Assembly (NCBI GenBank): GCA_036734945.1
Contig: DAIMXP010000023.1
Span: 1-64,000 of the forward strand
Length of the DNA: 64,000 nucleotides
Origin: Chloroflexota bacterium
GTDB lineage: Bacteria > Chloroflexota > UBA4733
Reading direction: 5' to 3'
Shown here: one piece after another, positions 7,386 through 58,580 of the stretch
Numbering within the stretch: the first letter of the stretch is position 1
Layout of the letters: the number at the start of each line of letters is the position of its first letter
The notes under the pieces: generated by a model
The model's input: only the letters and a program-made list of their open reading frames with translations
Database searches by the model: none
What the model was told of the DNA's origin: nothing
Translations under genes and position numbers: made by a program

Positions 7386-7531
7386 CGGCGACTGAAGTCG
7401 CGGGCTACAGCGGGCGAAGTCCGCCTTCGCGGACTGGACGCTCACCCTGAGTGTCTCGTCTCAGCCCGCGAAGGTGCCGGCAGCCGCAGGCTGACCATTG
7501 GCAAGGTTAGCCCGCGACTTCAGTCGCCGGG
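7386..7531. repeat. Family-A MITE-like palindromic element (terminal inverted repeats CCGGCGACTGAAGTCGCGGGCTA / TAGCCCGCGACTTCAGTCGCCGG), copy 1
   Basis: The terminal inverted repeats and the internal GCGAAGTCCGCCTTCGCGGACT palindrome are shared with copies at 15.7, 43.6, 45.0 and 58.5 kb. It is intergenic between convergent genes. Confidence 0.7.
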
Positions 7532-7803
7532 ACCTTTGGCGCCGATGTGCGACGAACTTGCCGGATGCACTACTACGCTACCTCGCGCACGTGTGCGACC
7601 TCCCGTTCTCTCACTGCCCGAACGGCATCAGCGGGAACGGTGACAACGGCAAGCGTCAGCCCGGAAAATGCCGTGAACTCTACCTCATAACCGGCTCCTT
7701 ACTGGTGTACCATAACGACAGTACCGACATCGTCGGCTTTCAGTCCGTTTTCGGGAATGTCTTGCGTGAGCACGGCAAACTTAAGTTCCTGAATCATTCC
7801 CTT

Positions 7804-9111
7804 TTACTCCAACGCTTCAAACGCCTCGTCTACGGCGATCAGCGTCTGGTCGATATCCTCCATCGTGTGGACCGTAGAGAGATAGAACTTCTCGTTGGGG
7901 TTCACCAGGATGCCGCGATTGAGCAGTTCAATCGCCCAGCGGAAGCCGAGGGGCTTGTCGGCTGTAAGTAAGTCCTGCCAGTTGCGCAGGGGCTGCTTCG
8001 CAGTGAAGCGCACGCCGAAGACGGCATCCTCGCCGGGACATTGGACGACGTAGCCGTGCTTGTCGCCCAGCATGCTGATGCCGGCGCGGAGACGGCTGCC
8101 GATGGCGTGGAGGTGGTCATAGGTACCCGGTTGTTCCAGCACGCCCAGTGCGGCGACACCGGCGGAGGCGCTGATCGGGTTGCCGTTGAGGGTGCCGCTG
8201 GCCCAGGCCAGCTCCTGCCGCGGTCGCTGGCGGGCATCCAATGGTGACATTACTTCTGCCTGACCGACGATGGCCGCCATGGGGAAACCGCCGGAGATGG
8301 CCTTGCCGTAGCAGGCCATGTCGGGGACGACGCCGTAGCGTTCCTGCGCCCCGCCCCAGGCGATGCGGAAGCCGGTCACCACTTCGTCGAAGATCAGCAC
8401 GATGCCGTGGCGGCTACAGGCATCGCGAATGGCGGCCAGGAAGCCCGGCTCCGGCAGCAGCACGCGTTGCAGGGGCTCCACGATCACGGCAGCCAGGTCC
8501 CCGGCATTGCGGTCGATGATCTCCACCGCCCGCTCGCTGTCGTTGAAGGGGGCGACCAGCACCAGATCGGCGATGGCCGGCGGGATACCGGCGGAATCAG
8601 GGTTGGACTGCGGGTAGGGGGATGGTCCCTCCGGCACGGTACCCCACAGGGCATAGTCGTGCATGCCGTGCCAGCCGCCCTCGAACTTGAGTATCTTCTG
8701 GCGACCGGTGAAAGCGCGGGCCACGCGCAAGGCAAAGAATGTAGCCTCCGTGCCGGAACCGGTGTAATGCACGCGCTCACCGCAGGGGATGGCCGTCACC
8801 AGCTTCTCCGCAAGACGAATCGCCGGCTCGTTCAGGAAGTAGTAGGTCGACCCCTTGCGCACCTGCGCTTCGACCGCCGCCACGATCTTGGGGTGCGCGT
8901 GCCCCAGGAACGCCGGCCCGGAACCCAGGTGGTAGTCGATGTACTCCCGGCCGTCGACCGCCGTGACCCGGCTGCCGTAGCCGGAGGCGATCACCAGGTT
9001 GACCTCAGGCGGCAGTTGGAACAACCCCAGACCGCCCCCGGCCAGCGTGTTGGCCGCGATCTCCAGCAGTTGCTGCTGGCGCTCGACGCCACTTGCAGTT
9101 ACAACCGTCAT
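7804..9111 (-). CDS. Class-III (PLP-dependent) aminotransferase, glutamate-1-semialdehyde aminomutase-like
   Basis: 435 aa. N-terminal GSRVTAVDGREYIDYHLGSGPAFLGHAHPKIVAAVEAQ and the overall length are typical of aminotransferase class III. Confidence 0.75.
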   Translation of the reverse strand: MTVVTASGVERQQQLLEIAANTLAGGGLGLFQLPPEVNLVIASGYGSRVTAVDGREYIDYHLGSGPAFLGHAHPKIVAAVEAQVRKGSTYYFLNEPAIRLAEKLVTAIPCGERVHYTGSGTEATFFALRVARAFTGRQKILKFEGGWHGMHDYALWGTVPEGPSPYPQSNPDSAGIPPAIADLVLVAPFNDSERAVEIIDRNAGDLAAVIVEPLQRVLLPEPGFLAAIRDACSRHGIVLIFDEVVTGFRIAWGGAQERYGVVPDMACYGKAISGGFPMAAIVGQAEVMSPLDARQRPRQELAWASGTLNGNPISASAGVAALGVLEQPGTYDHLHAIGSRLRAGISMLGDKHGYVVQCPGEDAVFGVRFTAKQPLRNWQDLLTADKPLGFRWAIELLNRGILVNPNEKFYLSTVHTMEDIDQTLIAVDEAFEALE

Positions 9112-9944
9112 GCTTCGCTCTCCTTCCGATGAAAGTCCCGGCGCGGCCGGATCTGGCGACCACGAAACTCCAGGAGGAAGTTTGCCAGGTGCCGTGTCGC
9201 CGCGTCGGCCAACTGCTTACCCTTTTCCGGCGTGGCCAGCGTGGGATCGCCCTGGATGCCGGTGCTGGAGTTACGACTGAAGAACTCCTGGAAGTTGACC
9301 GGACCGCCCCTGGCCAGATCCCAGAAGATGTGCTCCGAACGCTGGACTTCGTCCATCGTCTTCACGGCCTTCGACATATCGACCAGATCGGCTTGCAGGT
9401 GCAGGATCAGCGACGTTTCCGCCTCGCATGCGTGGGAGAAGCCGCCGGGGTAGGGCGACTCCCGCCAACTGAGGTCCTCGGGATGGAGCAACGACCACCA
9501 ACTCAGCGCGGCGCAGATCGCTTCGGTCTGGTTATTGATCAGGCGTGCGGCGATGTCGATGAAGGGCGCGTTGCTGCCGTGCCCGTTGTAGAGGACGATA
9601 TGCCGGAAGCCGTGGTGGGCCAGACTGCGCCCGATGCAGGCCAGGTAGTCGATGATGGTGTGGGCGTCGATGGCGATAGTGCCGGGGTAGTCCAGGTGGT
9701 GCTCGTTGAAGGAGTAGGGCACCGGGTGCATCACCAGCGCGGGTGCGGCGCCGTCCCCGGCTTGCTCCGCCAGGCTCCGCACGGCCGCCTCGGCCATACG
9801 CCCAGCCGTGAGGTAATCGGTCATCAGCGGGAGATGGGGGCCGTGCTGCTCGGTCGTGCCGACCGGCAAGACAATCACCGGGTCATGCTGCACCGCCTCC
9901 CGCACCTGCGGCCAGCTCAGTTCCTCATAGCGATACGTCTGCAT
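9108..9944 (-). CDS. Creatininase (creatinine amidohydrolase) family protein
   Basis: The N-terminus LSWPQVREAVQHDPVIVLPVGTTEQHGPHLPLMTD matches the creatininase family metal-binding core. It overlaps the downstream aminotransferase by 4 nt. Confidence 0.75.
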   Translation of the reverse strand: MQTYRYEELSWPQVREAVQHDPVIVLPVGTTEQHGPHLPLMTDYLTAGRMAEAAVRSLAEQAGDGAAPALVMHPVPYSFNEHHLDYPGTIAIDAHTIIDYLACIGRSLAHHGFRHIVLYNGHGSNAPFIDIAARLINNQTEAICAALSWWSLLHPEDLSWRESPYPGGFSHACEAETSLILHLQADLVDMSKAVKTMDEVQRSEHIFWDLARGGPVNFQEFFSRNSSTGIQGDPTLATPEKGKQLADAATRHLANFLLEFRGRQIRPRRDFHRKESEA

Positions 9945-10320
9945 CTGCTGCTCCTGTCCTCCAGTGCGCCGGCTCTTCGCCCCGATACGGTTTCGGCCCG
10001 CGACTGCGGTCGCGGGTAGGCTTATCTAAACTGTATTGCTCTTCGCCTTTCCAGCATATGCTACTCTGCCGGACGGCGGCGCGCATCTTGACATTCCCGG
10101 CTACAGGACTGACCAGGGTCCGCCCGCGCTTTCTTACCCTGCCCGTGCGATCGCGGCGGGCGTTCCATCACGATGGCAACAGGAGCCGTGGCAGCTTTTG
10201 GCAGTTTGGCGGCGCACTTTGATAGCTGCCGTACCGGACGCTTCACACGAACGGCGAGCGGTATAGGTGCGGAGCGATAACGGATCACCCGCACCTTGAT
10301 GATCTCAGGAGGTGACACGG

Positions 10321-10761: not shown

Positions 10762-10803
10762 CGCCCTTGGGGACGCAGGTAGCGATGACAGGGGAGGAAG
10801 CAC

Positions 10804-12567
10804 ATGACAACCACACGACGCACCTACACCTATCTGCTGGCCCTGGCCGGGCTGTTGGTGACCATCTCCGCTGCCGCCGGTCTGCTGGCACTGGTTGTCT
10901 CTACCCTCGTGCTCCACTCTAGCACGTTGCTCGGCGATGAGCGCAGCGTTGCCAGCTCCTATCTGGCCGAACTGGTCGTCGGCTTGCCGGTATGGCTCGG
11001 GCACTGGCTCGTAGCCGAGCGCAGCCTCGCCCGAAACCCGGAGGAGCGAGATGCAAGCCAGCGACGCCTTTACCTGGCCGCCGTCTTCGCCGTCAGCGCG
11101 GTGGTGGCGCTGTTCGCCCTGCACACGCTCCTGCGCGTCATCCTCACCTTGCCTGGCGCAGACGCCCGTCAACCGTTGATCGCCACCGGCATCAGCGCCG
11201 CCGCGCGTTTGCTCATATTCGGCGGAGCCTGGGCTGTCCATACCCCTGTTGACCACCAGCGCTTTGCAAGTCGGAACAGCACAGCCGGCGTGGACGATGC
11301 CCATGACCTGGCCGTGTACGTGCTGACGGGCACGGCGCTGGTCTTCTTGCTCATCGGCCTGGACCAGGCCATTCGCCAGATCGTTGGGGACCTGCTGTCC
11401 GCCGGGCAGACGGAACTCCTCGTCGTTGCCGGGCAGAACCTCTGGACTATTTGGGGCGCGATCGCCGCCTGGGTGCTGGCCGGCGGCACGATCTGGGCAC
11501 TCGTGTGGCAGTACGACCTGGCGCGCGGCGGGCGGCGACTGCTGCGGGTCATCTACCTGTACCTCGTGCTGCTTATCGCCGTGCCAACCACGATCGGGAC
11601 GGGCGTGGATGGACTCTACGAACTGCTGCGCCGCCTCTTCGGCTATCAACCGTTGGAAGCCACCTGGGCATTCCTGGGCAGCGTGCTCCCGCCCTTACTG
11701 GTCGCCGCCGGTACGTGGGCCTACCACTGGTTGACGGTGCGACAGCAGGCACGCTACGTCAGCGATGTTCCCGCGGCGCCGGCAGCGGAGGGCGAGCCAG
11801 CAGCGCCTGAGCGTGGTGTTTCCGGCATTGCCTGGCCGCGCCGCCCGGGACTGGCGCTGCTGGCCTTATTGGGGCTGGGCGTCAGTGCATCCGCCTTCGT
11901 CGCCGTACTGTGGCTCGGTCTGGACGCCCTGATTAACAGTGCCCCTTCGTTATCGGGGTCCGATTGGTGGCGCGATCGCCTGAGCGTGAGCCTCGCGGCT
12001 GGGGCGGTCGGGGCGGTTGCCTGGTTCAGTGGCTGGTGGCGCTTGCAGCGCGCGGCTACGCTGGTTCGTCAGGAGCGCGGAGCGCAGGAACGCCGGTTGC
12101 TGCTGGGGTTCATCGCCGTCGTAGGGACGCTCTTCGCCTTCGGCTTCCTGATCGCCTTACTCTGGTTCGCTTTCCGAGCGCTCCTCGGCGTGCCCGTCGG
12201 AGCGCACGGCTTGAGCACGGCGCTGAAGGAGTTCAGCGCCGCCCTCGTTGCCCTGCTACTGGCAGCCTACCACGGGCTGATCTTGCGCACCGACAGCAGC
12301 ATAGAACCCGGGCCTCCCATTCCTCAGCGGATCCGAGTACTGGTTTCCCCCGGCGCTGAGGCAATGCTGGCAGCGTTACGGCAGGATTCCAGTCTGCAGA
12401 TCGAAGTGGCCGGATGGCTGCTTGATGACGTGCGGGTAGCACAGCGCGACCTACCCGCGCTGCTTGCGCGACTCACAACCGCGGGCCCCTCGCAGGAGGG
12501 TACGCAGACGTTACTGGTGCTCGGTCCAGATGGTCCGACAATCTACCGCTACCGCAGCGAACGTTAG
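10804..12567 (+). CDS. Polytopic membrane protein of unknown function
   Basis: 587 aa with many hydrophobic segments. A GGGGAGGAAG RBS lies upstream. Confidence 0.5.
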   Translation: MTTTRRTYTYLLALAGLLVTISAAAGLLALVVSTLVLHSSTLLGDERSVASSYLAELVVGLPVWLGHWLVAERSLARNPEERDASQRRLYLAAVFAVSAVVALFALHTLLRVILTLPGADARQPLIATGISAAARLLIFGGAWAVHTPVDHQRFASRNSTAGVDDAHDLAVYVLTGTALVFLLIGLDQAIRQIVGDLLSAGQTELLVVAGQNLWTIWGAIAAWVLAGGTIWALVWQYDLARGGRRLLRVIYLYLVLLIAVPTTIGTGVDGLYELLRRLFGYQPLEATWAFLGSVLPPLLVAAGTWAYHWLTVRQQARYVSDVPAAPAAEGEPAAPERGVSGIAWPRRPGLALLALLGLGVSASAFVAVLWLGLDALINSAPSLSGSDWWRDRLSVSLAAGAVGAVAWFSGWWRLQRAATLVRQERGAQERRLLLGFIAVVGTLFAFGFLIALLWFAFRALLGVPVGAHGLSTALKEFSAALVALLLAAYHGLILRTDSSIEPGPPIPQRIRVLVSPGAEAMLAALRQDSSLQIEVAGWLLDDVRVAQRDLPALLARLTTAGPSQEGTQTLLVLGPDGPTIYRYRSER

Positions 12568-12772
12568 GCGGACGCCCGCCCTTTATGAAGGTTGACGAAT
12601 AAAACGGGGATTGTAGGCGCGTCCGTAGGGGCAGGTCCCCGTGCCTGCCCTGGCTCGGGCACAACCACCGATCACTTTGTGCAGCCGGACCAGGGCAGGC
12701 ACGGGGACCTGCCCCTACAGCTCTATCCGAATCCCGGATCTGTTTGTCATACTTCATTAAGGGCGGGCGTCG
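12567..12772. repeat. Long nested palindromic element (inner perfect 29-bp arms GTAGGGGCAGGTCCCCGTGCCTGCCCTGG; outer arms GGACGCCCGCCCTTTATGAAGG / CTTCATTAAGGGCGGGCGTC)
   Basis: Inner and outer inverted repeats were read from the sequence. The element sits immediately after the stop of the 10804-12567 gene. Confidence 0.6.
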
Positions 12773-12867
12773 GGCTGCGTCAACTGGACGTGCGGCACGC
12801 GCCCCGTCGCATGCCGCAAGCACGAGTTTGACTGAACGAGAAACGTGCGGGAAGCGGTGAACGCCGC

Positions 12868-15621: not shown

Positions 15622-15675
15622 TGGTCGTCGCCCTCCCCCGTCTGGATACGCCGGATCCAGTTCGTGCGTTGGTGG

Positions 15676-15849
15676 CCGGCGACTGAAGTCGCGCCTAACG
15701 CTGCGAAGCCCGCCTTCGCGGGCTGACCTAAACTGAAGCCACGATGGGATCTACATGGTGCGCGCTCGGGGCCTGCGGGTTTCATCGTGGCTTGAGTTTA
15801 GTCCGCGAAGGCGGACTTCGCTATGGTAGCCGCAACTTCAGTCGCCAGG
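15676..15849. repeat. Family-A MITE-like palindromic element, copy 2
   Basis: Terminal inverted repeats GGCGACTGAAGTCGCGCCTAAC / TAGCCGCAACTTCAGTCGCC. Internal palindromes GCGAAGCCCGCCTTCGCGGGCTGACCTA and TAGTCCGCGAAGGCGGACTTCGC. Confidence 0.7.
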
Positions 15850-22105: not shown

Positions 22106-22109
22106 CGCC

Positions 22110-27586: not shown

Positions 27587-29127
27587 GTGGCAGACCTCCA
27601 AGCGGTCGGGATCGACCTCGGCACAACCTACTCGTCGGTAGCGATCGTCGATGCCCAGGGCAACGTCCAGCTTATCCCTAACGCCGAGTCCGAACGGTTG
27701 ACGCCGTCGGCTGTCTACTTCGATGACGACTCCATCGTGGTGGGTCAGATTGCCAAGGATAAGGCGGCCAGCGACCCCGATCGGGCGGTGCTCTTTGTCA
27801 AACGCCAGATGGGCAGCCTCCATTGGCTCTTCGGCCACGAGGACCAGCGCTACTCCCCAACCGATGTCTCCGCCATCATCCTGGCAAAGCTCAAGCGGGA
27901 CGCCGAACAGTACCTCAATCGTCCCCTTCCCTACGCCGTCATCACGTGCCTGCCTATTTCGATGACGACCGGCGACGGGCCACCATTGCGGCCGGGGAGC
28001 TAGCGGGCTTCAAGGTGCTTGATCTGGTCAACGAGCCAACCGCTGCGGCGGTCGCCTTCGGCGTGGAACGCAGCACACAGGACGAGACGGTGCTGGTCTA
28101 CGACCTCGGAGGGGGGACGTTCGACGTCACGCTCATGCATGTGGCGGGCAAGCAGATTCGGATCATCGGGACGGATGGAGATCATCAGCTCGGCGGTAAA
28201 GATTTCGACGACGCCATAATGGTGTACGCCGTTGAGGCCTTTCAACGCGAACACGGCTTCGATCCGTCCATTGACCCCTTTGTGGCGGCGGAGTTGCGCG
28301 GTCAAGCTGAACGAGCCAAACGGGAACTGAGCAAGCTGACCAAGGCATCCCTGGCTGTGCGCGCTCAAGGCAAAAGTACGCGCGCTGTGCTTTCCCGCGA
28401 ACAGTTCGAGGCGCTGATCAAGCCAAAGCTGGATACGACACTGGCGCTGGTACGCACGGTCATCACGGAGGCGAAAGTAGCACCCGGACAGGTGGACCGT
28501 GTGCTTCTCATCGGCGGCTCGACGCGCGTGCCGGCGGTGGCCCAGGCACTGGAGCGCTACTTCGGCAAGGCTCCCGATGCTTCCGTGAACCCGGATGAGG
28601 CAGTGGCGCTGGGAGCCGCGCTCATGGCCGCGCGGAAAATGGTCGACGCAGCCCCGTTGGAGGCGCCCCCGAAGGTGATCGAGAAGGTGGGTGGACTGGA
28701 AGTCACCGACGTCTCCGCGCACAGCCTCGGCATCGAAGCCTTCGTTCCCGGCACCAGTCAGCGCCTCAATAGCATCCTGATCCCCCGGAACAGCCCGATC
28801 CCCACGGAAGTCTCGCGCGAGTTCGTGACCGCCCTTCCCGGTCAGACCGCGATCAAGGTCACGATCTATCAAGGTGAATTTCCAGACCCCAACCTCTGTA
28901 ACCCCATCGGGGAGTTCACGCTCACGGGTCTGCCAGCGAACCGTTCGGCAGGACAGAAGGTAAGGGTGACGGTTTCCTGCGGAACCAGCGGTGTGGTGAA
29001 CGTGACTGCACTCGACATCGCCACGGGTCACCAGACTGCCACCGAGGTGAGTTACCGTGGCGACAAGGGTGGCGAAGCCAAGAAGAGCGCCCGAGACCGC
29101 TGGAAGACGGCGAAGCCGATCGTCTGA
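27587..29127 (+). pseudogene. Hsp70-family protein lacking the C-terminal lid, interrupted by a -1 frameshift near 27946
   Basis: N-terminus AVGIDLGTTYSSVAIV. The frame switches after AVIT (expected AVITVPAYF; the sequence atcac|gtgcct lacks 1 nt). The downstream frame reads VPAYFDDDRRRATIAAGELAGFKVLDLVNEPTAAAVAFG. Confidence 0.7.
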
Positions 29128-33005: not shown

Positions 33006-33500
33006 CAGGGCCGCGATTGCGGGCCCAGAGGGCGCCCCCGGCCAAGTTACCGGGGCGACTGCGGTCGCTTGGGTGGGGGAGGACGGTTGGGGGCAAGGGA
33101 CGTTCGATGGGTTGGGAACAGGGCCGCGATTGCGATCGGCGGCCAAGGACGGAGGGCGACTGCGGTCGCTTGGGTGGGGACCGACGGTTGGAAAAGGCGA
33201 AAGATTGGTTCATCTTGAACAGGGCCGCGATTGCGATCGACGGCCAAGTGACGAGGGCGACTGCGGTCGCTTGGGTGGGGACCGACGGTTGCATATTCAC
33301 AGCGCCTCGGCCCCTGCTCCCCTTCACCATTCCTTGCCTCCCGCAACCGTCCTTACCCTGTCAAGCGACCGCAGTCGCCCCCGTCACTTGGCCGCCGATC
33401 GCAATCGCGGCCCTGTACTCCCCCACCCACCTTCCCGCAGCCTCCCCCAACCGCACTCCCCCGGCCAAGCGACCGCAGTCGCCGCCCTGCGATCTCCCTA
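33006..33500. repeat. Family-B REP/BIME-like cluster with three direct and two inverted copies of a roughly 50-75 bp unit (GGGCCGCGATTGCGATCGGCGGCCAAGTGACGGGGGCGACTGCGGTCGCTTGG)
   Basis: Units were read directly from the sequence. Each holds two hairpins (GGCCGC..GCGGCC and GCGAC-TGCG-GTCGC). The same unit recurs at 37.8 and 55.2 kb. Confidence 0.7.
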
Positions 33501-33549: not shown

Positions 33550-36546
33550 ATGCAGTTCCCCTATATCTTCCTTTCCAGCCGTGAATTCGTCCAGGAGGCT
33601 GTCGACTTCGACAACAATCATGGTGTGACCTACCGGGAGGTCGGCGGCGAGCATGCCATCTGGGCGGCGCGGGTGCCGTTCGTCCCAGCGATGATGTCGG
33701 AGGACTTCACGCGCCTTGGCCGGGAACGCATCCGGCTCATCATGGAGCGCCAGTTCCATTTCATCTACGACCTCGCCCGGCTGCGGGAGCATCGCGCTAC
33801 CTTTGAGCTCCGCTTCATCGCCACGCCCAATCCGGTCCCCGGCCAACCCAACCTGATCGACATGGTCTTCCTCGGCAAGGTCTTCGCGACGCGCTTCCGG
33901 GGCGGCCAGCCGCTGGCGGAACGGCTCTGGGAGAAGTTCCAGGCGACGTTTCCGGTGGAGGACCCCTTCAACTATCCGCTGGAGCCGGTGACCAACGAGG
34001 CGGAGTTTCGGAGTTACCTGGAGCCGATCCCTACCGCCAACCTCACGGCGGACTGTCTGCTCGAAATCCGCAAGTATGAAGACATGCCGATTCGCAGCAC
34101 GGCAGCGCTTGGCCGCCTGGAGCGAACCGGTGACTATGTCGCCCACCCCTTCGTCCCCTGCGTCGACTTCAACCCCATGGGCCGCTTCCTGGCGGCGCTC
34201 GCCCGCGAACCGCAACGCTGCCTGGTGGGTATCAGTCTGCGGCCTGTACGCATGTTCGACCAGGAAATCTTCAATGTCAGCTATGCCATCGGCCAATTCA
34301 AGAAGACCATCGGCGACGACGCTGGCGTCACCGAGGAGTACATCCGCTCGCGGGCCGGCATCGGCACCTTCGTCTATCAACAGTTGATGCAGGAACGCGA
34401 GGGCCTGGTGCTGGTGCGCGTTCACCTGGTGGGCGAGGACCACGCGCCTTACGGCCTCGCCGGCGCGCTTGGCTCCGAGATGATGGGCAACGCCGAGAAC
34501 GTCTACCCGACGCAGTGGTCCGCCGCCCAGCCGGCCGACGAGCACGAATTCGCTACTGCCGTCGCCAACCTGCGCTTCTTGGAGCAGGCGCACTGGGGCC
34601 ACACGATTGCGCCCTTACCACTCCAGCGCCTCCGCTACTTTGCCACTGCGCGCGAAGCATATGGCGCGTTTCGGCTGCCTGTCCCTTCCGAGTCCGGCTA
34701 CCTCCCCGGCGTGCTGGTCAAGAGTGAACCATTCGTCGCGCCGGCTGACGAATTGGAACTGCGCGAGCAGGCCCGTGCCAACCGCAACGATGCGCTCGCA
34801 GCCTCCACCGAGCAGGCCCGCAACCGCAAGGTCGGCCTTGGCGTAGTCTACCACCGCGGTTCAGCCACCGCGCAGGCATTCCGACTCAATGTGCGCGACC
34901 TCACCCGCCACGCGCTCATCGCCGGCTCCACCGGCAGCGGCAAGAGCACGACCGTCAAGCACATTCTGGTGCAGCTCTGGCTGGAGCACCGTGTCCCCTT
35001 CCTGGTCCTGTACCCGGTCGATAAGCCCGACTACCGCGAGCTGCGCGGCTTCCCGGCACTGGCCGACGAGTTACTCGTGTTCACGTTGGGTGACGAGAGC
35101 ACGTCGCCCTTCCGCTTCAACCCTTTTGAGGTACCGGATGGCCTGCTGCTCAAGACGCACCTCTCTCGCCTCATGCGAGTCTTCACCGCTGCCTTCAGCC
35201 TCCAGGATCCTCTGCCCATGATCTATCGAGAGGCGCTTCGCCAGGTCTATCGGGAGAAGGGCTGGGACATTGTCCTGGAACGCGGCGAATCGAGCCGCGA
35301 CTATCCGACCATGGCGGAGTTCTATGCGGCGATCAAACGCATTGCCGACGGGCTGGAGTACGGCCGCGAGGTCAAGGATACCGTTCGCCAGGCCTCCGTC
35401 ATCCGCATTGGCGATTTGCTGGAGAATGCCGGCCACGTCGTCAACGTGCGCCGATCTATGCCGCTCGGCAAAATTCTGAACCAGCCCACGATCATGGAGT
35501 TGGGCCGCGTCGGCTCCGCCCAGGACACCGCGCTGCTGATGGGCTTCCTGTTGATGCGCTTCACCGAGGAAGTGGAGCGTCACCCGCGTCACGCCGAGCA
35601 CCCGCACATCACCGTGATCGAGGAGGCTCACCGTCTGATGGCGGAGACGGGGCCACGCTCCGAGTCGGGCGGTGACACGCGCGGCGCGGCCGGCGAGGAC
35701 TTTGCCAATATCCTGGCGGAGGTGCGCGGCTTCGGTGAGGGCATCATCATCGCTGAGCAGATTCCCACGTTACTGGTCAAAGGCGCCATCGGCAACACCT
35801 ATCTGAAAATCATGCACTGGCTGGAGGACGCGCCGAGCTTTGAGTCCTTCGCCGACATGATGAACCTCAACGCGGAGCAACGGGAGTACGCCCGCACCCT
35901 CACGCCCGGCTTCGCCCTCCTGCGTAATCCCTACGGTCGCCCGGTCCACGTCAAGGTACCGGAGTTCGGCGATCAGCCGGGCTACTGCCGCGAGGCCCTG
36001 CCCGACAGCTCCGACGCGAGCATTCGCGCCTTTATGGAGACGCAGCGGCAGAAGCTGGCGCTGGGCGACGTACCGGTTGACCCGTGGGATATCAGTCTCA
36101 GCGCCGGTGGGTCTGCCGCCGGGGCCACTCAGGCGGGGGCGGAGCTGCTGCAGTTGCTCGTGGCGGCGCCTATGGCAACCTGCGCCTACTGTGCCCCGTT
36201 ACACGCCACGAAGCGCTGCCGCTATGCCGGGGCGGTGCGCCGCCGTCTGCTCAGCGACTCCGCCTTCGATCAGGCCCGGCAGGAGGAGCTGCGTTCCGTG
36301 CTGGCACAGGAACAGCAATCAGACCTCTGGTTGGAAACGCGCGGCTGGGGCGCCCGCGTAGAAGAGCGGGTACGATCGGTCACGCCGGCCGACCGACGCG
36401 GCATCGTCTACTGCTACCTGGCGCACTCTGCCGACAGTATGGCGCGGGGAGCATCGGCGAAGGCGGAGGGGACAACGCCCGAGGTTCGCCGCGCCCGCGG
36501 CCTGCTCCAGCAATTTGAAGCAGAATACCCAAAGCCGGAAGGATGA
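33550..36546 (+). CDS. HerA/FtsK-type P-loop ATPase (DUF87-like) with a large uncharacterised N-terminal domain and a Cys-rich C-terminal region
   Basis: 998 aa. Walker A LIAGSTGSGKSTTV at about residue 450. Walker B HITVIEEAHRL (hhhhDEAH, characteristic of HerA/VirB4/FtsK). C-terminal CAYCAPLH..KRC. Confidence 0.6.
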   Translation: MQFPYIFLSSREFVQEAVDFDNNHGVTYREVGGEHAIWAARVPFVPAMMSEDFTRLGRERIRLIMERQFHFIYDLARLREHRATFELRFIATPNPVPGQPNLIDMVFLGKVFATRFRGGQPLAERLWEKFQATFPVEDPFNYPLEPVTNEAEFRSYLEPIPTANLTADCLLEIRKYEDMPIRSTAALGRLERTGDYVAHPFVPCVDFNPMGRFLAALAREPQRCLVGISLRPVRMFDQEIFNVSYAIGQFKKTIGDDAGVTEEYIRSRAGIGTFVYQQLMQEREGLVLVRVHLVGEDHAPYGLAGALGSEMMGNAENVYPTQWSAAQPADEHEFATAVANLRFLEQAHWGHTIAPLPLQRLRYFATAREAYGAFRLPVPSESGYLPGVLVKSEPFVAPADELELREQARANRNDALAASTEQARNRKVGLGVVYHRGSATAQAFRLNVRDLTRHALIAGSTGSGKSTTVKHILVQLWLEHRVPFLVLYPVDKPDYRELRGFPALADELLVFTLGDESTSPFRFNPFEVPDGLLLKTHLSRLMRVFTAAFSLQDPLPMIYREALRQVYREKGWDIVLERGESSRDYPTMAEFYAAIKRIADGLEYGREVKDTVRQASVIRIGDLLENAGHVVNVRRSMPLGKILNQPTIMELGRVGSAQDTALLMGFLLMRFTEEVERHPRHAEHPHITVIEEAHRLMAETGPRSESGGDTRGAAGEDFANILAEVRGFGEGIIIAEQIPTLLVKGAIGNTYLKIMHWLEDAPSFESFADMMNLNAEQREYARTLTPGFALLRNPYGRPVHVKVPEFGDQPGYCREALPDSSDASIRAFMETQRQKLALGDVPVDPWDISLSAGGSAAGATQAGAELLQLLVAAPMATCAYCAPLHATKRCRYAGAVRRRLLSDSAFDQARQEELRSVLAQEQQSDLWLETRGWGARVEERVRSVTPADRRGIVYCYLAHSADSMARGASAKAEGTTPEVRRARGLLQQFEAEYPKPEG

Positions 36547-37780: not shown

Positions 37781-37843
37781 GAATGGCGATGGGTGCGCCG
37801 CAAAATCCTGCACAGAAAGCGAACGGTATTTAGTGGCGTGTTA

Positions 37844-37974
37844 CAGGGCCGCGATTGCGATCGGCGGCCAAGTGACGGGGGCGACTGCGGTCGCGTTGCG
37901 AACCGTCGACGGCGCATCCAAGCGACCGCAGTCGCCCCCGTCACTTGGCCGCCGATCGCAATCGCGGCCTTGTA
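37844..37974. repeat. Family-B REP-like palindromic element (unit + 27-bp spacer + inverted unit)
   Basis: Near-perfect inverted pair of CAGGGCCGCGATTGCGATCGGCGGCCAAGTGACGGGGGCGACTGCGGTCGC. Confidence 0.7.
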
Positions 37975-38062
37975 CTCTCGGGTAATCACGTCGTCCCCTT
38001 TCTAAGCAAACCGTTGCGGCCCCCCAATGCCGATCTGGTTCGAGCCAGCCGAACACAGCCGA

Positions 38063-41739: not shown

Positions 41740-42935
41740 AAATCGCGCTCGTCTGCCCCTACGATTTCGCCACGCCCGGCGGTGTGCAGGATCACGTGCG
41801 CCACCTGGGAGAGCGTTTTCAGCAGACGGGCCACGACGTGCGCATCCTGGCGCCCTCCAGCGACGACGAGGTCCACGAGAGCGGCAATGTCTACACCGTC
41901 GGCGGTGTCACCGCTGTGCCGGCTAACGGGTCGATCGCCCGCATCTCCCTCTCCATTCGGCTGGCGAAGCGCGTCAAGCACATCTTGCGCTCCGAGCAGT
42001 TTGACATTGTGCATGTGCACGAGCCGCTGATGCCGATGCTGCCGATCACCGTGTTGCGCTTTTCCGACGCCTTGAACATCGGCACCTTCCACGCCTATTC
42101 GCGCAGCCATTATGGCTACCAGTGGGGCAAGCCCCTGCTGATGCGCTATTTCCGCCGCCTCTCCGGCTGCATCGCCGTGTCCGAACCGGCCCAGCAGTTC
42201 ATCGAGCAGTACTTCCCCGGCAAGTACACGGTGATTCCCAACGGCATCGACGTCGCCGAGTTTTCGGGGCCGATCGAGCCGCTGCCGGAGTTTAACGACG
42301 GCATGCTCAACATCCTGTTCTTCGGGCGACTGGAGAAGCGCAAAGGGCTGCGCTTCCTGCTGCGCGCCTTCCCGCTGGTGAAGTCGGCCTTCCCCAACGC
42401 CCGCCTGATTGTGGCCGGTGAAGGCACGACGCGGGCGGCCTACCAACAGTGGGTGGACAAGCACGAGGTACGCGATGTCGTGTTCACGGGCCGCGTTTCG
42501 GCGGCGGATCGCGCGCGCTGCTATGCCAGCGCCGACGTCTTTTGCGCCCCCAACATCGGCGGCGAGAGTTTCGGCATCGTCTTGCTGGAAGCGATGGCGT
42601 CGGGGAAGCCGGTCGTCGCCAGCGCCATTCCCGGCTACAAGGCCGTCATTCAGGACACGGTGGATGGCTTGCTGTTTCCAGCCAAAGATCACGAGGCGCT
42701 CGCCAGCACGCTCTGTCGGCTGCTGGCCGATGCCGATTTGCGACGGCAGTTAGGGGCAGCCGGTCGGCGCAAAGCCTGGCAGTTCGACTGGTCGTCAATC
42801 GCCGATCAGGTGCTGACCTACTATCGTCAGGTCGCGCAGAGTCAACAGCGTGAGGCTCCCCACTTGCTGGCCTCGCCAGCCGAGGTGTTTGAGGCGCTAC
42901 GCGGGCGGAACCCCGCCGGGGAGGGACGGGCATGA
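41736..42935 (+). CDS. GT4-family glycosyltransferase (PimA-like)
   Basis: MKIALVCPYDFATPGGVQDHV N-terminus and C-terminal EX7E-like FGRLEKRKG...ESFGIVLLEAMASGKPVV. Start overlaps the ArsR stop (ATGA). Confidence 0.75.
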   Translation: MKIALVCPYDFATPGGVQDHVRHLGERFQQTGHDVRILAPSSDDEVHESGNVYTVGGVTAVPANGSIARISLSIRLAKRVKHILRSEQFDIVHVHEPLMPMLPITVLRFSDALNIGTFHAYSRSHYGYQWGKPLLMRYFRRLSGCIAVSEPAQQFIEQYFPGKYTVIPNGIDVAEFSGPIEPLPEFNDGMLNILFFGRLEKRKGLRFLLRAFPLVKSAFPNARLIVAGEGTTRAAYQQWVDKHEVRDVVFTGRVSAADRARCYASADVFCAPNIGGESFGIVLLEAMASGKPVVASAIPGYKAVIQDTVDGLLFPAKDHEALASTLCRLLADADLRRQLGAAGRRKAWQFDWSSIADQVLTYYRQVAQSQQREAPHLLASPAEVFEALRGRNPAGEGRA

Positions 42936-43618
42936 TCTCGCTGGAACTGCAAGCTATTTTTCGCCGCCTGGTCGAACGCCTGATGCAACCGCTGGTACGC
43001 TCGGGCATCACCCCGAACATGGTGACGATCGTCGGTCTGCTGGTGAGCGGCGTGACGGCGCTAGTGTTGGCTGGCGGGCACTTCTTTGGTGGCGGCCTGC
43101 TCGTGCTCTTCTCCGGCGCCTTCGATATGCTCGATGGCGGTCTGGCGCGCGCCCGCGGCGGCGGCAGCAAGTTTGGCGCCTTCTTTGACTCCACGCTGGA
43201 TCGCCTCTCCGAGGGCGTCATCTACCTGGGCCTCCTCTACTGGTTCACCGCCACGCAACGGCCCAAATCGGCTGTCCTGATCTACCTCGTCATCCTCGGA
43301 TCGCTGTTGATCAGCTACTCCCGTGCCCGTGCCGAAGGGTTAGGCCTGGAGTGCAAGGTCGGCTTGCTGGCCCGCCCGGAGCGCGTGATCCTGCTGGGGG
43401 TGGCGCTGGTCATCGACGGCGCCGGTTTCGGTTCACTGCCGAAAGACCAGATCCTGGTGGTGGTGCTGGCCGGCCTGGCGGTCCTCACCTTCTTCACACT
43501 GGCCCAGCGCATCTGGTACATCTGGCGACTGACCTTGCCGGTGGTCAGCGCTCGCGAAGGCGGTGCTGTCGCCATGTTCCTCGCCCGCCGCGATGCCCGG
43601 CGCGCCCGCCATTCGTAG
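42932..43618 (+). CDS. CDP-alcohol phosphatidyltransferase (phosphatidylinositol-phosphate synthase-like)
   Basis: DMLDGGLARARGGGSKFGAFFDSTLDRLSE matches the D(x2)DG(x2)AR...G(x3)D(x3)D motif. Overlaps the GT4 stop. Confidence 0.75.
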   Translation: MISLELQAIFRRLVERLMQPLVRSGITPNMVTIVGLLVSGVTALVLAGGHFFGGGLLVLFSGAFDMLDGGLARARGGGSKFGAFFDSTLDRLSEGVIYLGLLYWFTATQRPKSAVLIYLVILGSLLISYSRARAEGLGLECKVGLLARPERVILLGVALVIDGAGFGSLPKDQILVVVLAGLAVLTFFTLAQRIWYIWRLTLPVVSAREGGAVAMFLARRDARRARHS

Positions 43619-43625: not shown

Positions 43626-43733
43626 CCCGGCGACTGAAGTCGCGGGCTACTGAAAGCGAAGCCCACCTTCGTGGGCTGACCTAGTCCGCGTAGGCGGACT
43701 TCGCTTCGAATAGCCCGCGACTTCAGTCGCCGG
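43626..43733. repeat. Family-A MITE-like palindromic element, copy 3
   Basis: CCCGGCGACTGAAGTCGCGGGCTA...TAGCCCGCGACTTCAGTCGCCGGG with internal GCGAAGCCCACCTTCGTGGGCTGACCTAGTCCGCGTAGGCGGACTTCGC. Confidence 0.7.
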
Positions 43734-44150
43734 GCGCGGAGGCGCCGCCGTTAGCAAGCAGACCTCGCAAAACCTTGGGGGACACCCCGGTAACGCTGCC
43801 CCGTGTCGGCATCGGTTATGCGTCTGTTACCATGTGATGGACGCTCGCCTCGTCTCATCGCTGATGAACGCATACTGCAGGGTGGCGATCACTGCCTGCC
43901 GGAACGGGGCCTGTGACGGGTCCCACATCCGCGCCGGTAGCACCCCTGTTCTGTCGGTCGCACCACGACCGTTCCGCTGAGAAAGAAAATTGCCCCGGTT
44001 CCACTGTGGAGCCGGCTCGTGTGCCTATTGCCAGGGGAAGGACATTGGTTCGTGCTACAAGCGTATGAGACTCGTTCGGGCGTCGCTCAACCCGCCGTTG
44101 GGTTGGCGCCGACGAGTGAACGGTTCAGACGAGCAGACAACACGCCGTGG

Positions 44151-45008
44151 ATGCGCTTCTTCGTGGTCGTCGGCGTCGTCGTGCCGATTGCTGCTGTCGT
44201 CGTCGCTATCGTGCAACTCTGGCAGCACGCAGTCTATGGCAAGGACCTGGCACTGCTCGCCAGTACCTACTTCTTCGTGGCCATGGGTGTCACGATCGGC
44301 TATCACCGCTTCCTGACCCATCGCGGCTTCCGCGCGCCGCGCTGGTTGAAGCTGCTGTTGCTCATCCTGGGCAACATGTCGTTGGAAGGGACTCCGGTCA
44401 CCTGGGCCAGCACGCACCTGGAACACCACGCAAAATCCGACCGCGAAGGCGACCCGCATAGCCCGCTGGAAGGTTTCTTCCATGCCCACGTCGGTTGGAT
44501 TCTTGACGGCTTTACTTCCAACACGGCAAAGTATGGCCCCTGGCTCCTGGAGGACCCTATCGTCATGTTCGTCACGCGAACGTCGTGGCTGTGGGACGTG
44601 CTCTCTTTCGCCATTCCGTTCGCCATCGACGGCTGGCGGGGCCTGATCTGGGGCGGGCTGGTGCGCATGTTCCTGGTGCATCACGTCACCTGGAGTGTCA
44701 ACTCCGTCTGCCACGTCTTCGGCAAGCGGCCCTTCAAGACGGGCGACCGCAGCACCAACAACTGGCTGGTCGGCCTGCTGGCGGGCGGCGAAGGCTGGCA
44801 CAACAACCACCACGCCTTTCAGCGCTCCGCCTATCACGGCCTCTTCTGGTGGCAGTTCGACCTCTCCGGCATCATCATCCGCACGCTGGAACTGACGCAC
44901 GTCATCAGCGAGGTCCAGAAGGTTGATCGAGCCCTTATCAGGCGGCGATTGCAGGAGGCTTTGACCGCTGCGGCGGCCAAAGCACCCGCATCCGCGGGCG
45001 TCGCCTGA
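44151..45008 (+). CDS. Acyl-CoA (delta-9-type) fatty acid desaturase
   Basis: Histidine boxes HRFLTHRGF, HLEHHAKSD and WHNNHHAF. 4 TM helices. A long upstream leader of about 400 bp. Confidence 0.8.
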   Translation: MRFFVVVGVVVPIAAVVVAIVQLWQHAVYGKDLALLASTYFFVAMGVTIGYHRFLTHRGFRAPRWLKLLLLILGNMSLEGTPVTWASTHLEHHAKSDREGDPHSPLEGFFHAHVGWILDGFTSNTAKYGPWLLEDPIVMFVTRTSWLWDVLSFAIPFAIDGWRGLIWGGLVRMFLVHHVTWSVNSVCHVFGKRPFKTGDRSTNNWLVGLLAGGEGWHNNHHAFQRSAYHGLFWWQFDLSGIIIRTLELTHVISEVQKVDRALIRRRLQEALTAAAAKAPASAGVA

Positions 45009-45016
45009 GTAGACGG

Positions 45017-45141
45017 CTGGCGACTGGAGTCGCGCCTAACACCCACGCTACGCGCGGGTACCCGGCGAAGCCCGCCTTCGCGGGCTGACCTAGTCCGCGC
45101 AGGCGGACTTCGCCATGGTAGCCGCGACTTCAGTCGCCAGG
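45017..45141. repeat. Family-A MITE-like palindromic element, copy 4
   Basis: CTGGCGACTGGAGTCGCGCCTAAC...TAGCCGCGACTTCAGTCGCCAGG with the internal core shared with copies 2 and 3. Confidence 0.7.
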
Positions 45142-47814: not shown

Positions 47815-47944
47815 CTCTCCCCCTCACGGGAGAGAGAGAACGCGGTTGGAACGCCGGTCGCGTTGGGGCAATGTCCCAGCGCAGTTTTGACCAAAGACTA
47901 CCGTCACTCCGGCTGCGTTCCCCCTCTCCCGTGAGGGGGAGGGG
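47815..47944. repeat. Inverted repeat (about 18-25 bp arms CTCTCCCCCTCACGGGAGAGAG / CCCCCTCTCCCGTGAGGGGGAGGGG) spanning the gap between convergent genes
   Basis: Arms are reverse-complementary (17/18) and about 80 bp apart. Confidence 0.45.
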
Positions 47945-53352: not shown

Positions 53353-53369
53353 TGCGATGACGGCAGACC

Positions 53370-54344: not shown

Positions 54345-54349
54345 GGCCG

Positions 54350-55048: not shown

Positions 55049-55173
55049 TGCAATCTCCTCCGCCCTACCCTATGTGGGGTCTGAGCATAGGCAATTGTAC
55101 CGGAAAGGGCAGGTGGGGAGTGATGCAAAGCAGTGCGCAGCAAGCGAGCATTGCGATGCACCACGCTTTTGAA

Positions 55174-55296
55174 GGCCGCGACTGCGATCGGCGGCCAAGC
55201 TAACGGGGCGACTGCCGTCGCCTGCATCATCGGATGACACGGTGCGATGCGACGGCAGTCGCCCCGTTAGCTTGGCCGCCGATCGCAATCGCGGCC
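55174..55296. repeat. Family-B REP-like palindromic element (inverted pair), preceded by a conserved leader-like TGATGCAAAGCAGTGCGCAGCAAGCGAG that is also found before the 33.0-kb cluster
   Basis: GGCCGCGACTGCGATCGGCGGCCAAGCTAACGGGGCGACTGCCGTCGCC / inverse copy. Confidence 0.65.
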
Positions 55297-55309
55297 CTAT
55301 GCCGTCCGC

Positions 55310-57676: not shown

Positions 57677-57775
57677 CGCGGCCCAGCAGCGAGAATGGGA
57701 GGATGGTCCAGGTTATGCTGACGGGGCACAGCCGACGGTATCGTGGATGTGCGGCGCCTACGGGAAGGGGAATCG

Positions 57776-58443
57776 GTGCCACTCCAGATCGTGCTTGCTT
57801 CTCAGTCACCCCAGCGCAGCGGCCTGCTGAGCCGCCTCGGCCTCAATGTCCTGGTGCAACCAAGCGACGTTGATGAAGCGTTCATCGCCGTGCCGGCCGA
57901 TCCGCTGGAACAGGTGTACCTGCTTGCCCAGGCAAAGGCCGCAGCGGTGGCGCGGCACTTTCCCCAGCATATCGTACTGGCGCCGATACGCTTGTTGAGC
58001 TTGAAGGAAGCGTCCTCGGCAAACCGGGCAGCCCGTCGCTGGCGACAGCGATGCTGCGCCGGCTGTCCGGCCGACGCCATATGGTACACACCGGGCTGGC
58101 CCTGGTTCTGCCGGAAGAGTGCCGCACCGCCGATCAATCCCGCACCCTAACCGCGATCGTCTCTTCCACCGTCACCTTTCATCAACTTGACGACGAACAG
58201 ATCGCCGCCTACGTCCAGACCGGCGAGCCACTGAACAAGGCCGGCGCCTACGGCCTTCAAGGATCTGGTAGCCAGTTAGTCGCCTCGCTCAGCGGCTGCT
58301 TCACGAATGTCGTGGGTCTTCCACTCTGTGCAATTGCCAAGCTGTTGACGGCGGCCACCGGGCAGCCGGTGCTCTGCCCTGCCGATGCTGGCTGCCGAGC
58401 TGCAGGAGAAGAGGACTGTCTTTGCCGCGTCGACTCCGCCTGA
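57776..58443 (+). pseudogene. maf: Maf-family nucleoside triphosphate pyrophosphatase with a -1 frameshift near 57980
   Basis: IVLASQSPQRSGLLSRLGL N-terminus. The frame changes after HIVL (ctgg|cgcc, one G short of ctgggcgcc). The second frame reads GADTLVELEGSVLGKP...MLRRLSGRRHMVHTGLAL...GEPLNKAGAYGLQG. Confidence 0.6.
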
Positions 58444-58459
58444 AGCTGGTGATGCTCGC

Positions 58460-58580
58460 CTGGCGACTGAAGTCGCGGCTATACCAGGCGAAGTCCGCCT
58501 GCGCGGACTCGTTTCCAGCCCGCGAAGGGCCCAGAGGGCACCCACTTCGCTCGCTTTTAGGCGCGACTTTAGTCGCCGAC
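58460..58580. repeat. Family-A MITE-like palindromic element, copy 5
   Basis: CTGGCGACTGAAGTCGCGGCTATA...GCGCGACTTTAGTCGCCGACC with internal GCGAAGTCCGCCTGCGCGGACT. Confidence 0.65.

Follow-up and report, generated by a model that had tools for sequence, protein, structure and literature searches.

Repetitive extragenic palindromes (REPs), their inverted doublets (REPINs) and the REP-associated tyrosine transposases (RAYTs) provide the principal case of a transposase that has long persisted, apparently domesticated, together with a repeat population, and this system has been studied almost wholly in Proteobacteria and with class 2 enzymes. Our references for REPs and REPINs are Nunvar 2010 (PMC2817692), Bertels & Rainey 2011 (PMC3116915), and Ton-Hoang/Quentin (PMC6006769). 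A different group of Y1 tyrosine transposases, TnpA-Y1 subclass 1.2, has been described as near the IS200 transposases but without the properties of an insertion sequence (IS) (PMC6006769). Its signatures are DH[IV]H, WQ, and Y---Q--HH (YIKNQKEHH), with a median length of 148 aa (Quentin et al. 2018, PMC6006769); it is present at 1.7 copies per genome with 36% identity between copies, is mostly limited to Cyanobacteria and Bacteroidetes, and carries a "no" in the REP column of that survey (PMC6006769). Here, we analyze a 64,000-nt stretch of a Chloroflexota genome (contig DAIMXP010000023.1, positions 1 to 64,000; "the window" is this whole 64-kb stretch) and its five-copy intergenic palindromic repeat, Family A. 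The Family A copies are most likely nonautonomous elements of the REP/REPIN type, mobilized in trans by a Y1 transposase whose gene would lie elsewhere in the genome. That the two-hairpin unit from which they are built is the missing repeat partner of TnpA-Y1 subclass 1.2, and with it a second, independently evolved partnership resembling that of REPINs and RAYTs, is a further proposal that we regard as evenly balanced.

All five copies were found within 1-2 nt of where a preliminary description of this DNA had placed them, with lengths of 109-175 bp:

7384..7531, no strand, copy 1, a 148-nt doublet
15675..15849, no strand, copy 2, a 175-nt doublet
43626..43734, no strand, copy 3, a minimal doublet of 109 nt
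45016..45141, no strand, copy 4, a 126-nt doublet
58459..58580, no strand, copy 5, a 122-nt doublet

The terminal 16-mer GGCGACTGAAGTCGCG has ten matches in the window at one mismatch or fewer, and these form five facing pairs (7387+/7513-, 15678+/15831-, 43629+/43716-, 45019+/45123-, and 58462+/58562-). At up to three mismatches there are 27 matches versus 1.9 expected from shuffles, and most of the remaining 17 looser matches belong to a second repeat family built on GGCGACTGCGGTCGC. A covariance model of the half-unit, R1, was made from 65 units, two of them from the window, and was run across the whole window with filters off. It detects only ten half-units, all inside the five doublets, and no extra copies or solo units, the next match reaching only 12.7 bits. 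Seven of the ten score 51-73 bits, while the decayed or split ones fall lower: the right units of copies 1 and 5 score approximately 25 bits each, and the left unit of copy 4 is split into matches of 20.5 and 26.4 bits beside a right unit of 72.8 bits (the other pairs being 55.0/24.9 bits for copy 1, 69.2/66.2 for copy 2, 53.0/51.4 for copy 3, and 60.0/25.2 for copy 5). A repeat finder groups the five copies into the same families, each copy a long imperfect palindrome whose arms are 80-85% complementary. A folding check, as proposed in the preliminary description, showed that as single-stranded DNA all five copies are far more stable than their shuffles, none of which equals them, with folds of -39 to -63 kcal/mol and z values of -5.7 to -12.9 (-9.8, -9.1, -12.9, -8.6, and -5.7 for copies 1 to 5, respectively).

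A comparison with related sequences shows a half-element of approximately 52 nt, not the whole element, to be the repeating module, and each Family A copy consists of two such units, inverted and facing each other. Inward from the end, a unit comprises a flank, a hairpin (H1), a linker, and a second hairpin (H2). The flank of 2-4 nt, often CCC, CCT, or GCC, pairs with the opposite end of the doublet. H1 takes the form GCG-xyz-NN-z'y'x'-CGC, which in the window is GCGACT-GA-AGTCGC (GGCGACTGAAGTCGC); the linker, 13-17 nt long, opens with GGC[A/T]AC and closes with GC[G/A]AAG; and H2 has a 7-bp stem and a CTNC loop, its window forms being AGTCCGC-CTTC-GCGGACT or AGCCCGC-CTTC-GCGGGCT. The ten units of the window are as follows:

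7384-7437, + strand, copy 1 left unit, intact, with H1 GGCGACTGAAGTCGC, linker GGGCTAC..GCGAAG, and H2 AGTCCGC-CTTC-GCGGACT
7495-7531, - strand, copy 1 right unit, H1 kept, H2 decayed
15675-15726, + strand, copy 2 left unit, H2 AGCCCGC
15798-15849, - strand, copy 2 right unit, H2 AGTCCGC
43626-43679, + strand, copy 3 left unit, H2 AGCCCAC/GTGGGCT
43681-43734, - strand, copy 3 right unit, H2 AGTCCGC
H2 at 45065-45086, + strand, copy 4 left unit, H1 with one mismatch (GGCGACTGGAGTCGC), linker longer by approximately 20 nt
45090-45141, - strand, copy 4 right unit, intact
58459-58511, + strand, copy 5 left unit, intact, H2 AGTCCGC
58531-58580, - strand, copy 5 right unit, H1 with one mismatch, H2 disrupted

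Copy 2 carries between its units a 71-nt central insert that has an inverted repeat of its own. Copy 3, in which 1 nt separates the two modeled units, is the minimal form, and its arms as found by the repeat finder (43626-43677 and 43683-43734) are 85% complementary and 5 nt apart. The internal palindromes that the preliminary description had attributed to every copy correspond to the two H2 hairpins; both are intact in copies 2, 3, and 4, and one of the two is decayed in copies 1 and 5. The linkers fall into two subfamilies, with copies 1 and 3 having the GGGCTA type on both sides and copies 2, 4, and 5 pairing a CCTAA type with a GCTA type, and the order of the two H2 types (AGCCCGC, AGTCCGC) runs one way in copies 2, 3, and 4 and is reversed in copies 1 and 5. 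On the complementary strand, the GGCAAC/GGCTAC start of the linker reads GTTG or GTAG, 2-3 nt from the GCG core; the GGGCTAC units of the window give GTAG, and the commonest form, GTTG, lies outside the REP tetranucleotide GT[AG]G.

A comparison with Rfam, also suggested in the preliminary description, returned at gathering thresholds only CRISPR-DR28 (RF01356), on H2; Family A is not a described RNA family. A permissive scan added only meaningless hairpin look-alikes (miRNA precursors, VA RNA) far below their cut-offs. The CRISPR-DR28 matches are as follows:

45091-45114, - strand, 36.8 bits against a gathering score of 35
43682-43705, - strand, between 26 and 32 bits
45064-45087, + strand, between 26 and 32 bits
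43655-43678, + strand, between 26 and 32 bits

The 24-nt consensus of this family, GGCAAaGCCCGCCUGCGCGGGCuA, is essentially the linker end plus H2 of our unit. If the copies were misread CRISPR repeats or attC sites of an integron, the Rfam match would follow, and for attC one could add the linker sequence CCTAAC/GTTAGG, which we take to resemble the R''/R' boxes, and the position of copies 3 and 4 around one gene. However, the window contains no regularly spaced array with spacers, no cas gene, no integrase gene, and no cassette array, the copies lie 1.3-28 kb apart among unrelated housekeeping genes, and in other genomes the unit flanks Y1 genes. The integron candidate was rejected on these grounds, and the explanation as a whole is hardly credible. 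RF01356 may instead model arrays of half-units of this kind and no genuine CRISPR repeat. Other genomes do contain tandem arrays in which the half-units all point the same way (e.g., locus L085, 1419-1662, with a period of 63 nt), and such arrays could yield false CRISPR calls.

Both hairpins of the unit are maintained by compensatory change, as seen in tests that take no pairing for granted. In the vicinity of Y1 genes (see below), 171 of 220 frames of the form GCG-N8-CGC have all three free stem positions in Watson-Crick pairs, versus 21 of 199 in the far flanks; by our own arithmetic the chance of all three pairing is approximately 1.6% (1/64). A perfect H2 with a 7-bp stem and a 4-nt loop lies 13-17 nt downstream in 270 of 390 units defined by H1 alone, whereas shuffled sequence gives 4 of 390. 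Common H1 stems number at least eight (ACT, ATT, GTT, AAT, GCT, ACC, and others), distinct H2 arms number 48, and the H2 loops are nearly always CTGC, CTTC, CTCC, or CTAC. A gapless alignment of 65 units shows changes on both sides at three of the six H1 pairs and five of the seven H2 pairs, with a covariation score of 0.399 against 0.149 for shuffles (0 of 500 shuffles reached the observed value) and no more than 0.087 for slid partners; the percentage of paired cells in this alignment is partly built in, because the 65 units were chosen for having both hairpins, and the variety of pair types is unaffected by that choice. A third helix within the linker (columns 20-22 with 28-30) was considered and discarded, only 62% of its cells being paired. 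The innermost pair of H1 covaries (T-A to C-G) despite leaving a loop of 2 nt, a pattern that probably points to a hairpin of DNA, or to a protein recognizing the site symmetrically, more than to an RNA hairpin. Taken together, a covarying H1 and a second covarying H2 imply recognition of folded single strands.

A scan of species-representative genomes for the exact 16-mer GGCGACTGAAGTCGCG returned at least 114 loci, none of which overlaps the window. We estimate that a few hundred chance matches would be expected in the 596 Gb searched, and some of the 114 are clearly such matches. Full units (at least 40 bits with R1) are nonetheless present in approximately 72 of the first 100 loci, and by record title the unit occurs in at least six phyla among the loci listed:

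Chloroflexota: Anaerolineae, Chloroflexia, Roseiflexus, Oscillochloris, Roseilinea, Ktedonobacteria, and Thermomicrobiales
Cyanobacteriota: Tildeniella, Stenomitos, Nostoc, Coleofasciculus, and Oscillatoria PCC 10802
Other phyla: Armatimonadota; Gemmatimonadota (mostly Longimicrobium); Myxococcota; Eremiobacterota

The apparent identity of H1 across phyla arises in part because the loci were found by that exact sequence. Linker and H2 are lineage-specific, with GGCTA[CT]AC...AAAACCTGCC in Cyanobacteria, GGCACCGAAAACGTGATGTCGGCC in Longimicrobium, and CCTGA... in Myxococcales, and these variants argue against contamination between bins. Many of the units outside the window are paired in convergent doublets, whose lengths range from 106 to 220 nt (median 125 nt). 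Carriage by phages was considered and rejected: viral contigs gave seven exact 16-mers, none of them a full unit (18-22 bits, H1 only), and these look like chance matches.

The enzyme associated with the unit was identified by translating and clustering the open reading frames within 1.5 kb of the 16-mer at the 114 genome loci, with no partner presupposed. One recurrent family lies between two copies of the hairpin, in an Armatimonadota genome (L022), a member of the Anaerolineales (L064), and Longimicrobium (L070). The three proteins, which share 52-57% mutual identity, belong to Pfam Y1_Tnp (PF01797) with E values of 3e-26 to 3e-23; they score 71-78 bits against NCBIfam transpos_IS200 (NF033573, cut-off 55) and approximately 21 bits against NCBIfam REP_Tyr_transpos (NF047646, cut-off 80). 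In L022 (approximately 550 bp) and L070 (approximately 700 bp), unit, Y1 gene, and inverted unit make up one complete doublet frame whose ends are inverted repeats of approximately 55 nt, as in all five window copies, and in L064 several units lie on either side of the Y1 gene.

An independent test used 80 metagenome loci fetched by the alignment of these three proteins alone. Of the 80, 63 have a generic H1 hairpin no more than 300 nt from the Y1 gene. The density of H1 is 3.78/kb near the Y1 gene versus 0.18/kb farther off, with 171 sites observed near Y1 genes against 0.5 expected with shuffled flanks, and 180 of 189 such H1 sites have H2 after them at the usual distance. The order is typically [doublet]-Y1 gene-[doublet], for example in locus L125:

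1383 (+) and 1482 (-), repeat units
1501-1899, Y1 gene
1944 (+) and 2044 (-), repeat units

The Y1 proteins are 135-149 aa in length and carry their tyrosine motif in the form YI[QR][RN]QK[ER]HH; H.H within DH[VI]H, KWQ, and Y...Q..HH are invariant across 81 sequences. Their closest solved structures are TnpA of IS608 (E value 4e-10) and other IS200-type TnpA proteins, and the REP-associated enzyme of E. coli is not among their PDB matches. Homologs form at least 1523 clusters at 90% identity, and some of them are labeled as "REP element-mobilizing transposase RayT" by JGI (a generic COG name) and as "IS200/IS605 family transposase" by NCBI. As a separate observation, doublets beside Y1 genes (L123, L125, L185, and others) often mix H1 stems, such as GCGGCT/GCGATT or GCGAAT/GCGGTT, and in this they resemble the Y/Z2 REP pairs in the bacterial interspersed mosaic elements (BIMEs) of E. 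coli; a single enzyme may recognize both hairpin variants, or there may be two enzymes.

These findings bear on the label "MITE-like" given to the repeat in the preliminary description. A classical MITE (a miniature transposable element of the inverted-repeat type) would be an internally deleted IS with terminal inverted repeats, moved by a transposase of the DDE (Asp-Asp-Glu) type that binds the double-stranded 16-bp ends. The inverted-repeat ends, variable interior, and size of 109-175 bp of Family A fit such an element, and the transposase genes lying between both ends in L022 and L070 recall the pairing of an IS with its MITE. Against this, the gene between the ends encodes a Y1 enzyme of the HUH (His-hydrophobic-His) type rather than a DDE transposase and is the only recurrent neighbor family having these ends, the ends are hairpins kept by compensatory change and each is joined to a second covarying hairpin, and half-units also occur in same-direction tandem arrays. 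In addition, no consistent flanking direct repeat that could represent a target-site duplication was found at any of the five copies, which is as expected for Y1 transposition. A classical MITE is thus very unlikely. The label holds insofar as the copies are small, noncoding, palindromic, and intergenic and behave as nonautonomous mobile DNA, copies 3-5 being absent in relatives, and it fails insofar as it implies a DDE element, there being no target-site duplication, each supposed terminal inverted repeat being a covarying hairpin, and the partner gene being Y1.

Evidence for mobility comes from relatives of the window. L115, with a desaturase of 94% identity, has the same gene order (CDP-alcohol transferase, desaturase, 2-hydroxyacid dehydrogenase, cupin, URO-D) but neither copy 3 nor copy 4. 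Copy 5 is missing from L206 and L207 (DUF1800 identity of 87% and 85%, respectively), where the order is FtsK, Maf, DUF1800, DUF1501, and the distance from the Maf stop codon to a conserved CTTTCCCA[TC]CTTTACG box is approximately 12 nt in L206 versus approximately 150 nt in the window. R1 found no unit in approximately 35 kb around the desaturase and DUF1800 genes of five relatives, compared with ten units in the 64 kb of the window. The absence of these copies from relatives at 85-94% protein identity suggests that their gain was fairly recent. In one further relative, L116, an extra PAS/Trans_reg_C regulator gene lies between the CDP-alcohol transferase and desaturase genes; the intergenic region of copy 3 is variable among relatives in more than one way. 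A 1787-nt short-read contig, L205 (ENA ERZ27248641, contig k119_69517), aligns to window positions of approximately 58474-60260, with a DUF1800 protein 100% identical to that of the window and identical aligned upstream sequence, and it derives from the same organism, which is therefore present in that metagenome. L205 starts inside the left H1 of copy 5, a break that is as expected because assemblies break at multi-copy repeats; Family A repeats thus disrupt short-read assemblies.

The same data bear on the possibility that the copies are fossil repeats, the remnants of a past burst that have been immobile since their enzyme was lost from this genome. In keeping with that account, decay or splitting of H2 or the linker affects three of the ten units, and the window has no Y1 gene. 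As the preliminary description had stated, no transposase lies in the window: Pfam scans of approximately 49 genes returned neither a transposase nor an integrase, and tblastn with the Y1 proteins gave no match. The seven intact units, scoring 51-73 bits, and the fairly recent gain indicated by the relatives speak against it, and the account describes a present state of the same kind of element rather than a different kind. We consider it quite unlikely.

The genomic context of the copies would be an argument for a host function. All five are intergenic, as the preliminary description had it, with genes picked by third-position G+C and named with Pfam, and four of the five begin 7-40 nt past a stop codon. 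Copy 1 lies 40 nt 3' of the stop codon of an AMP-binding/PP-binding/acyltransferase gene (4752-7343, +) and 272 nt from that of a convergent aminotransferase gene (7804-9111, -). Copy 3 begins 7 nt past the stop codon of a CDP-alcohol phosphatidyltransferase gene (42932-43618, +) and ends approximately 300 nt upstream of an acyl-CoA desaturase gene; copy 4 begins 7 nt past the stop codon of that desaturase gene (45008) and ends approximately 76 nt upstream of a 2-hydroxyacid dehydrogenase start. Copy 5 lies 15 nt past the stop codon (58443) of a frameshifted Maf gene and upstream of the DUF1800 gene. Copy 2 breaks the earlier rule, which placed all copies either between convergent genes or immediately past a stop codon: it is located in a 314-nt region between divergent starts, those of a GNAT gene (15621, -) and an enolase-superfamily (MR_MLE) gene (+), the latter most likely starting at GTG 15936, which is preceded by GGAG.

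Structures selected by the host, whether RNA hairpins at 3' ends that serve in termination or mRNA protection or DNA sites for a host protein, would make the link to a transposase incidental. The position of four copies just past stop codons and their very stable folds are consistent with this, and a preprint reports E. coli REPs as regulators in the 3' untranslated region (bioRxiv 10.64898/2026.03.23.713779). No copy is followed by a T-rich tail, however, and the intrinsic terminator was rejected as a candidate, with no terminator-like call on the terminal hairpins, a number of calls equal to shuffle expectation, and no T run within 10 nt of the copies. The palindromes read the same on either strand, doublets stand in both orientations behind + strand genes, and copy 2 lies between divergent starts. 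Relatives that share the gene order lack copies 3, 4, and 5 at the orthologous sites, where the copies are thus dispensable; this and the strong association with Y1 genes also argue against host selection, which we judge to be unlikely.

We therefore return to REP/REPIN-type elements mobilized in trans as the best account of Family A. By analogy with IS608 TnpA and E. coli TnpA-REP, whose biochemistry is established (PMC6006769, PMC3479197), a Y1 enzyme from elsewhere in the genome would recognize the folded hairpins on single-stranded DNA, e.g., at the replication fork. It would cut at conserved nucleotides of the linker or hairpin foot, for which GGC[A/T]AC (GT[T/A]GCC on the other strand) and GC[G/A]AAG are candidates, and the doublet would be excised as single-stranded DNA and reinserted without duplication. 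Insertion would be tolerated mainly just past stop codons, and any effect on neighboring transcripts would be a by-product.

Several points weigh against this account. The cognate enzyme in this organism is an assumption, because no Y1 gene lies in the window, and transposition, binding, and cleavage by this family of Y1 proteins and units are proposed by analogy. Seventeen of the 80 Y1 loci have no H1 nearby, some of these ending at a contig edge, and the link between shared H1 stem type and Y1 protein similarity is significant but weak (mean identity 0.677 versus 0.660, a difference reached in 4 of 1000 permutations). With three of the ten window units decayed, some copies may be fossils. 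The flanks of the relatives have diverged too far for clean empty sites that would fix the exact insertion boundaries or a target motif, and the copies could formally have been lost from the relatives instead of gained in this genome.

The more specific proposal, of a partnership with subclass 1.2, would involve a class 1 IS200-type enzyme rather than a class 2 RAYT, a bipartite module of H1, linker, and H2, and at least six mostly nonproteobacterial phyla. A recurrent H1 combined with lineage-specific linkers and H2 would then mean that the unit has either resided in these lineages for a very long time, with H1 strongly constrained, or passed between phyla repeatedly. If the family is as it appears, a Y1 subclass described without IS ends or REPs would acquire a DNA substrate and a function, and the partnership would extend to Chloroflexota, Armatimonadota, Gemmatimonadota, Cyanobacteriota, and Myxococcota. 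The unit would also offer a defined two-hairpin substrate of approximately 52 nt, with natural compensatory variants, for the biochemistry of folded-DNA recognition by Y1 enzymes.

The window, which has a G+C content of 65% and no tRNA genes, contains several other features. Its desaturase gene (44019-45008), the single gene bracketed by copies 3 and 4, encodes a protein that has no exact match on record and is 94% identical to that of a Chloroflexota metagenome-assembled genome, with the next matches in other Chloroflexota, including Ktedonobacteria at approximately 60%. A second palindromic family, Family B, is present at three locations:

33015-33490, Family B
37841-37977, Family B
55168-55304, Family B

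It comprises one cluster of three 101-nt tandem units plus inverted copies, and two near-perfect palindromes with arms of 48-53 nt that are 98% complementary. The inner hairpin of Family B, GGCGACTGCGGTCGC, has the GCGAC/GTCGC stem of H1 but a TGCG loop, and the family also carries a GGCCGCGATTGCGATCGGCGGCC module containing GCGATCGC. R1 does not recognize Family B (approximately 6 bits), which may be a sister class of REP with an enzyme of its own.

Three further inverted repeats were noted, the first of which is unrelated to Family A:

4492-4682, inverted repeat with 85-nt arms, 84% complementary and 21 nt apart, in the gap from the end of the second MFS transporter gene at 4456 to the start of the AMP-binding gene at 4752
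12566-12776, nested inverted repeats just 3' of a DUF5671 gene, the outer with 47-nt arms, 79% complementary and 117 nt apart, and the inner with 34-nt arms, 94% complementary and 26 nt apart (GTAGGGGCAGGTCCCCGTGCCTGCCC...)
47817-47941, inverted repeat with 55-nt arms, 76% complementary and 15 nt apart (CTCCCCCTCACGGGAGAGAG...), directly 3' of the URO-D gene and between convergent genes

Two genes appear to be split. The Maf-like gene extends over the frames 57743-58150 and 58051-58443 (+), which cover Pfam Maf positions 1-68 and 88-186, and is intact in L206 and L207 (238-247 aa); the split reflects a frameshift, gene decay to a pseudogene, or a fault of the assembly. The same kind of split divides an Hsp70-family gene between 27587-28003 and 27823-29127 (+), covering profile positions 1-71 and 140-498. 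Two apparent frameshifts in 64 kb hint that the assembly contains indel errors or that genes are decaying. Near the split Hsp70 gene and a Band-7 gene lie two paralogous genes encoding a DnaJ domain and a double zinc ribbon (30466-31203 and 32000-32944, both +); they are followed by a gene for a 998-aa HerA/DUF87-like ATPase (33550-36546), with the Family B cluster in between.

A comparison of Family A with described systems shows both shared features and disparities. Bacterial MITEs such as Nezha, Correia/NEMIS, ERIC, and RUP are similar in size, inverted ends, intergenic position, strong folding, and lack of coding sequence, while their DDE transposases and target-site duplications have no counterpart in Family A. 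The IS200/IS605 elements and the palindrome-associated transposable elements (PATEs) share with our system the Y1 HUH fold and motifs, hairpin ends, absence of target duplication, and small noncoding derivatives that retain only the ends. Unlike the ends described here, which are inverted repeats of approximately 55 nt, those of IS200/IS605 are differing left and right subterminal hairpins on one strand. No tnpB was noticed in the Y1 loci read in detail, although no search was aimed at tnpB, and the published copy number of subclass 1.2 (1.7 per genome) is unlike that of an active IS.

TIRtrons and TIRYTs are a further point of comparison. In the text of Di Nocera et al. 2013 they are tyrosine transposase genes with flanking inverted repeats, some of them self-complementary, that form moderately abundant dispersed families with dimers or clusters, and GTAG-tagged REPs are described there in Cyanobacteria and in one species of Chloroflexi, Thermomicrobium roseum (PMC3733652). 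Family A resembles these in its dispersed dimers or clusters and in the inverted repeats that flank a tyrosine transposase gene. The TIRYT enzymes differ in being RAYT-like (class 2-like) with a shared motif GGGGWSAS, a comparison made by text, since the sequences of that paper are in its figures; the exact Family A repeat may already be among them. A full-text literature search for the 14-mer core found no paper.

The closest overall likeness in organization is to REPINs and RAYTs. Like REPs, Family A is built from GC-rich extragenic palindromes, ten units in five inverted doublets that fold into long hairpins, and in other genomes (L022, L064, L070, and the 63 of 80 metagenome loci) the same repeats flank a small Y1/HUH gene, an arrangement of [doublet]-gene-[doublet] that the REP literature calls a REPtron (PMC6006769). 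Further parallels are the lack of target duplication and the frequent pairing of two unit subtypes within a doublet, as with the Y and Z2 REPs of E. coli. On the complementary strand a GT[A/T]G stands near the foot of the hairpin, its GTAG form agreeing with the REP tetranucleotide and its commoner GTTG form not. In contrast, the enzyme is not a class 2 TnpA-REP (approximately 21 bits against a cut-off of 80), with Y...Q..HH replacing Y...NP; the unit has two parts, covarying hairpins joined by a conserved linker, whereas a REP is a single hairpin; and the hosts are Chloroflexota, Armatimonadota, Gemmatimonadota, Cyanobacteriota, Myxococcota, and Eremiobacterota, not mainly Proteobacteria.

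The enzyme itself resembles TnpA-Y1 subclass 1.2. The partner proteins, of 135-149 aa, carry the same motifs and are closest to IS200-type TnpA, so that the partner clade matches subclass 1.2, an assignment made by motifs and length rather than by a joint tree. In our literature search, no later paper was found that assigns repeats to this subclass. Unlike the published account of subclass 1.2 as having no REPs, our analysis finds repeat units flanking this clade in 63 of 80 loci and in a wider range of phyla.

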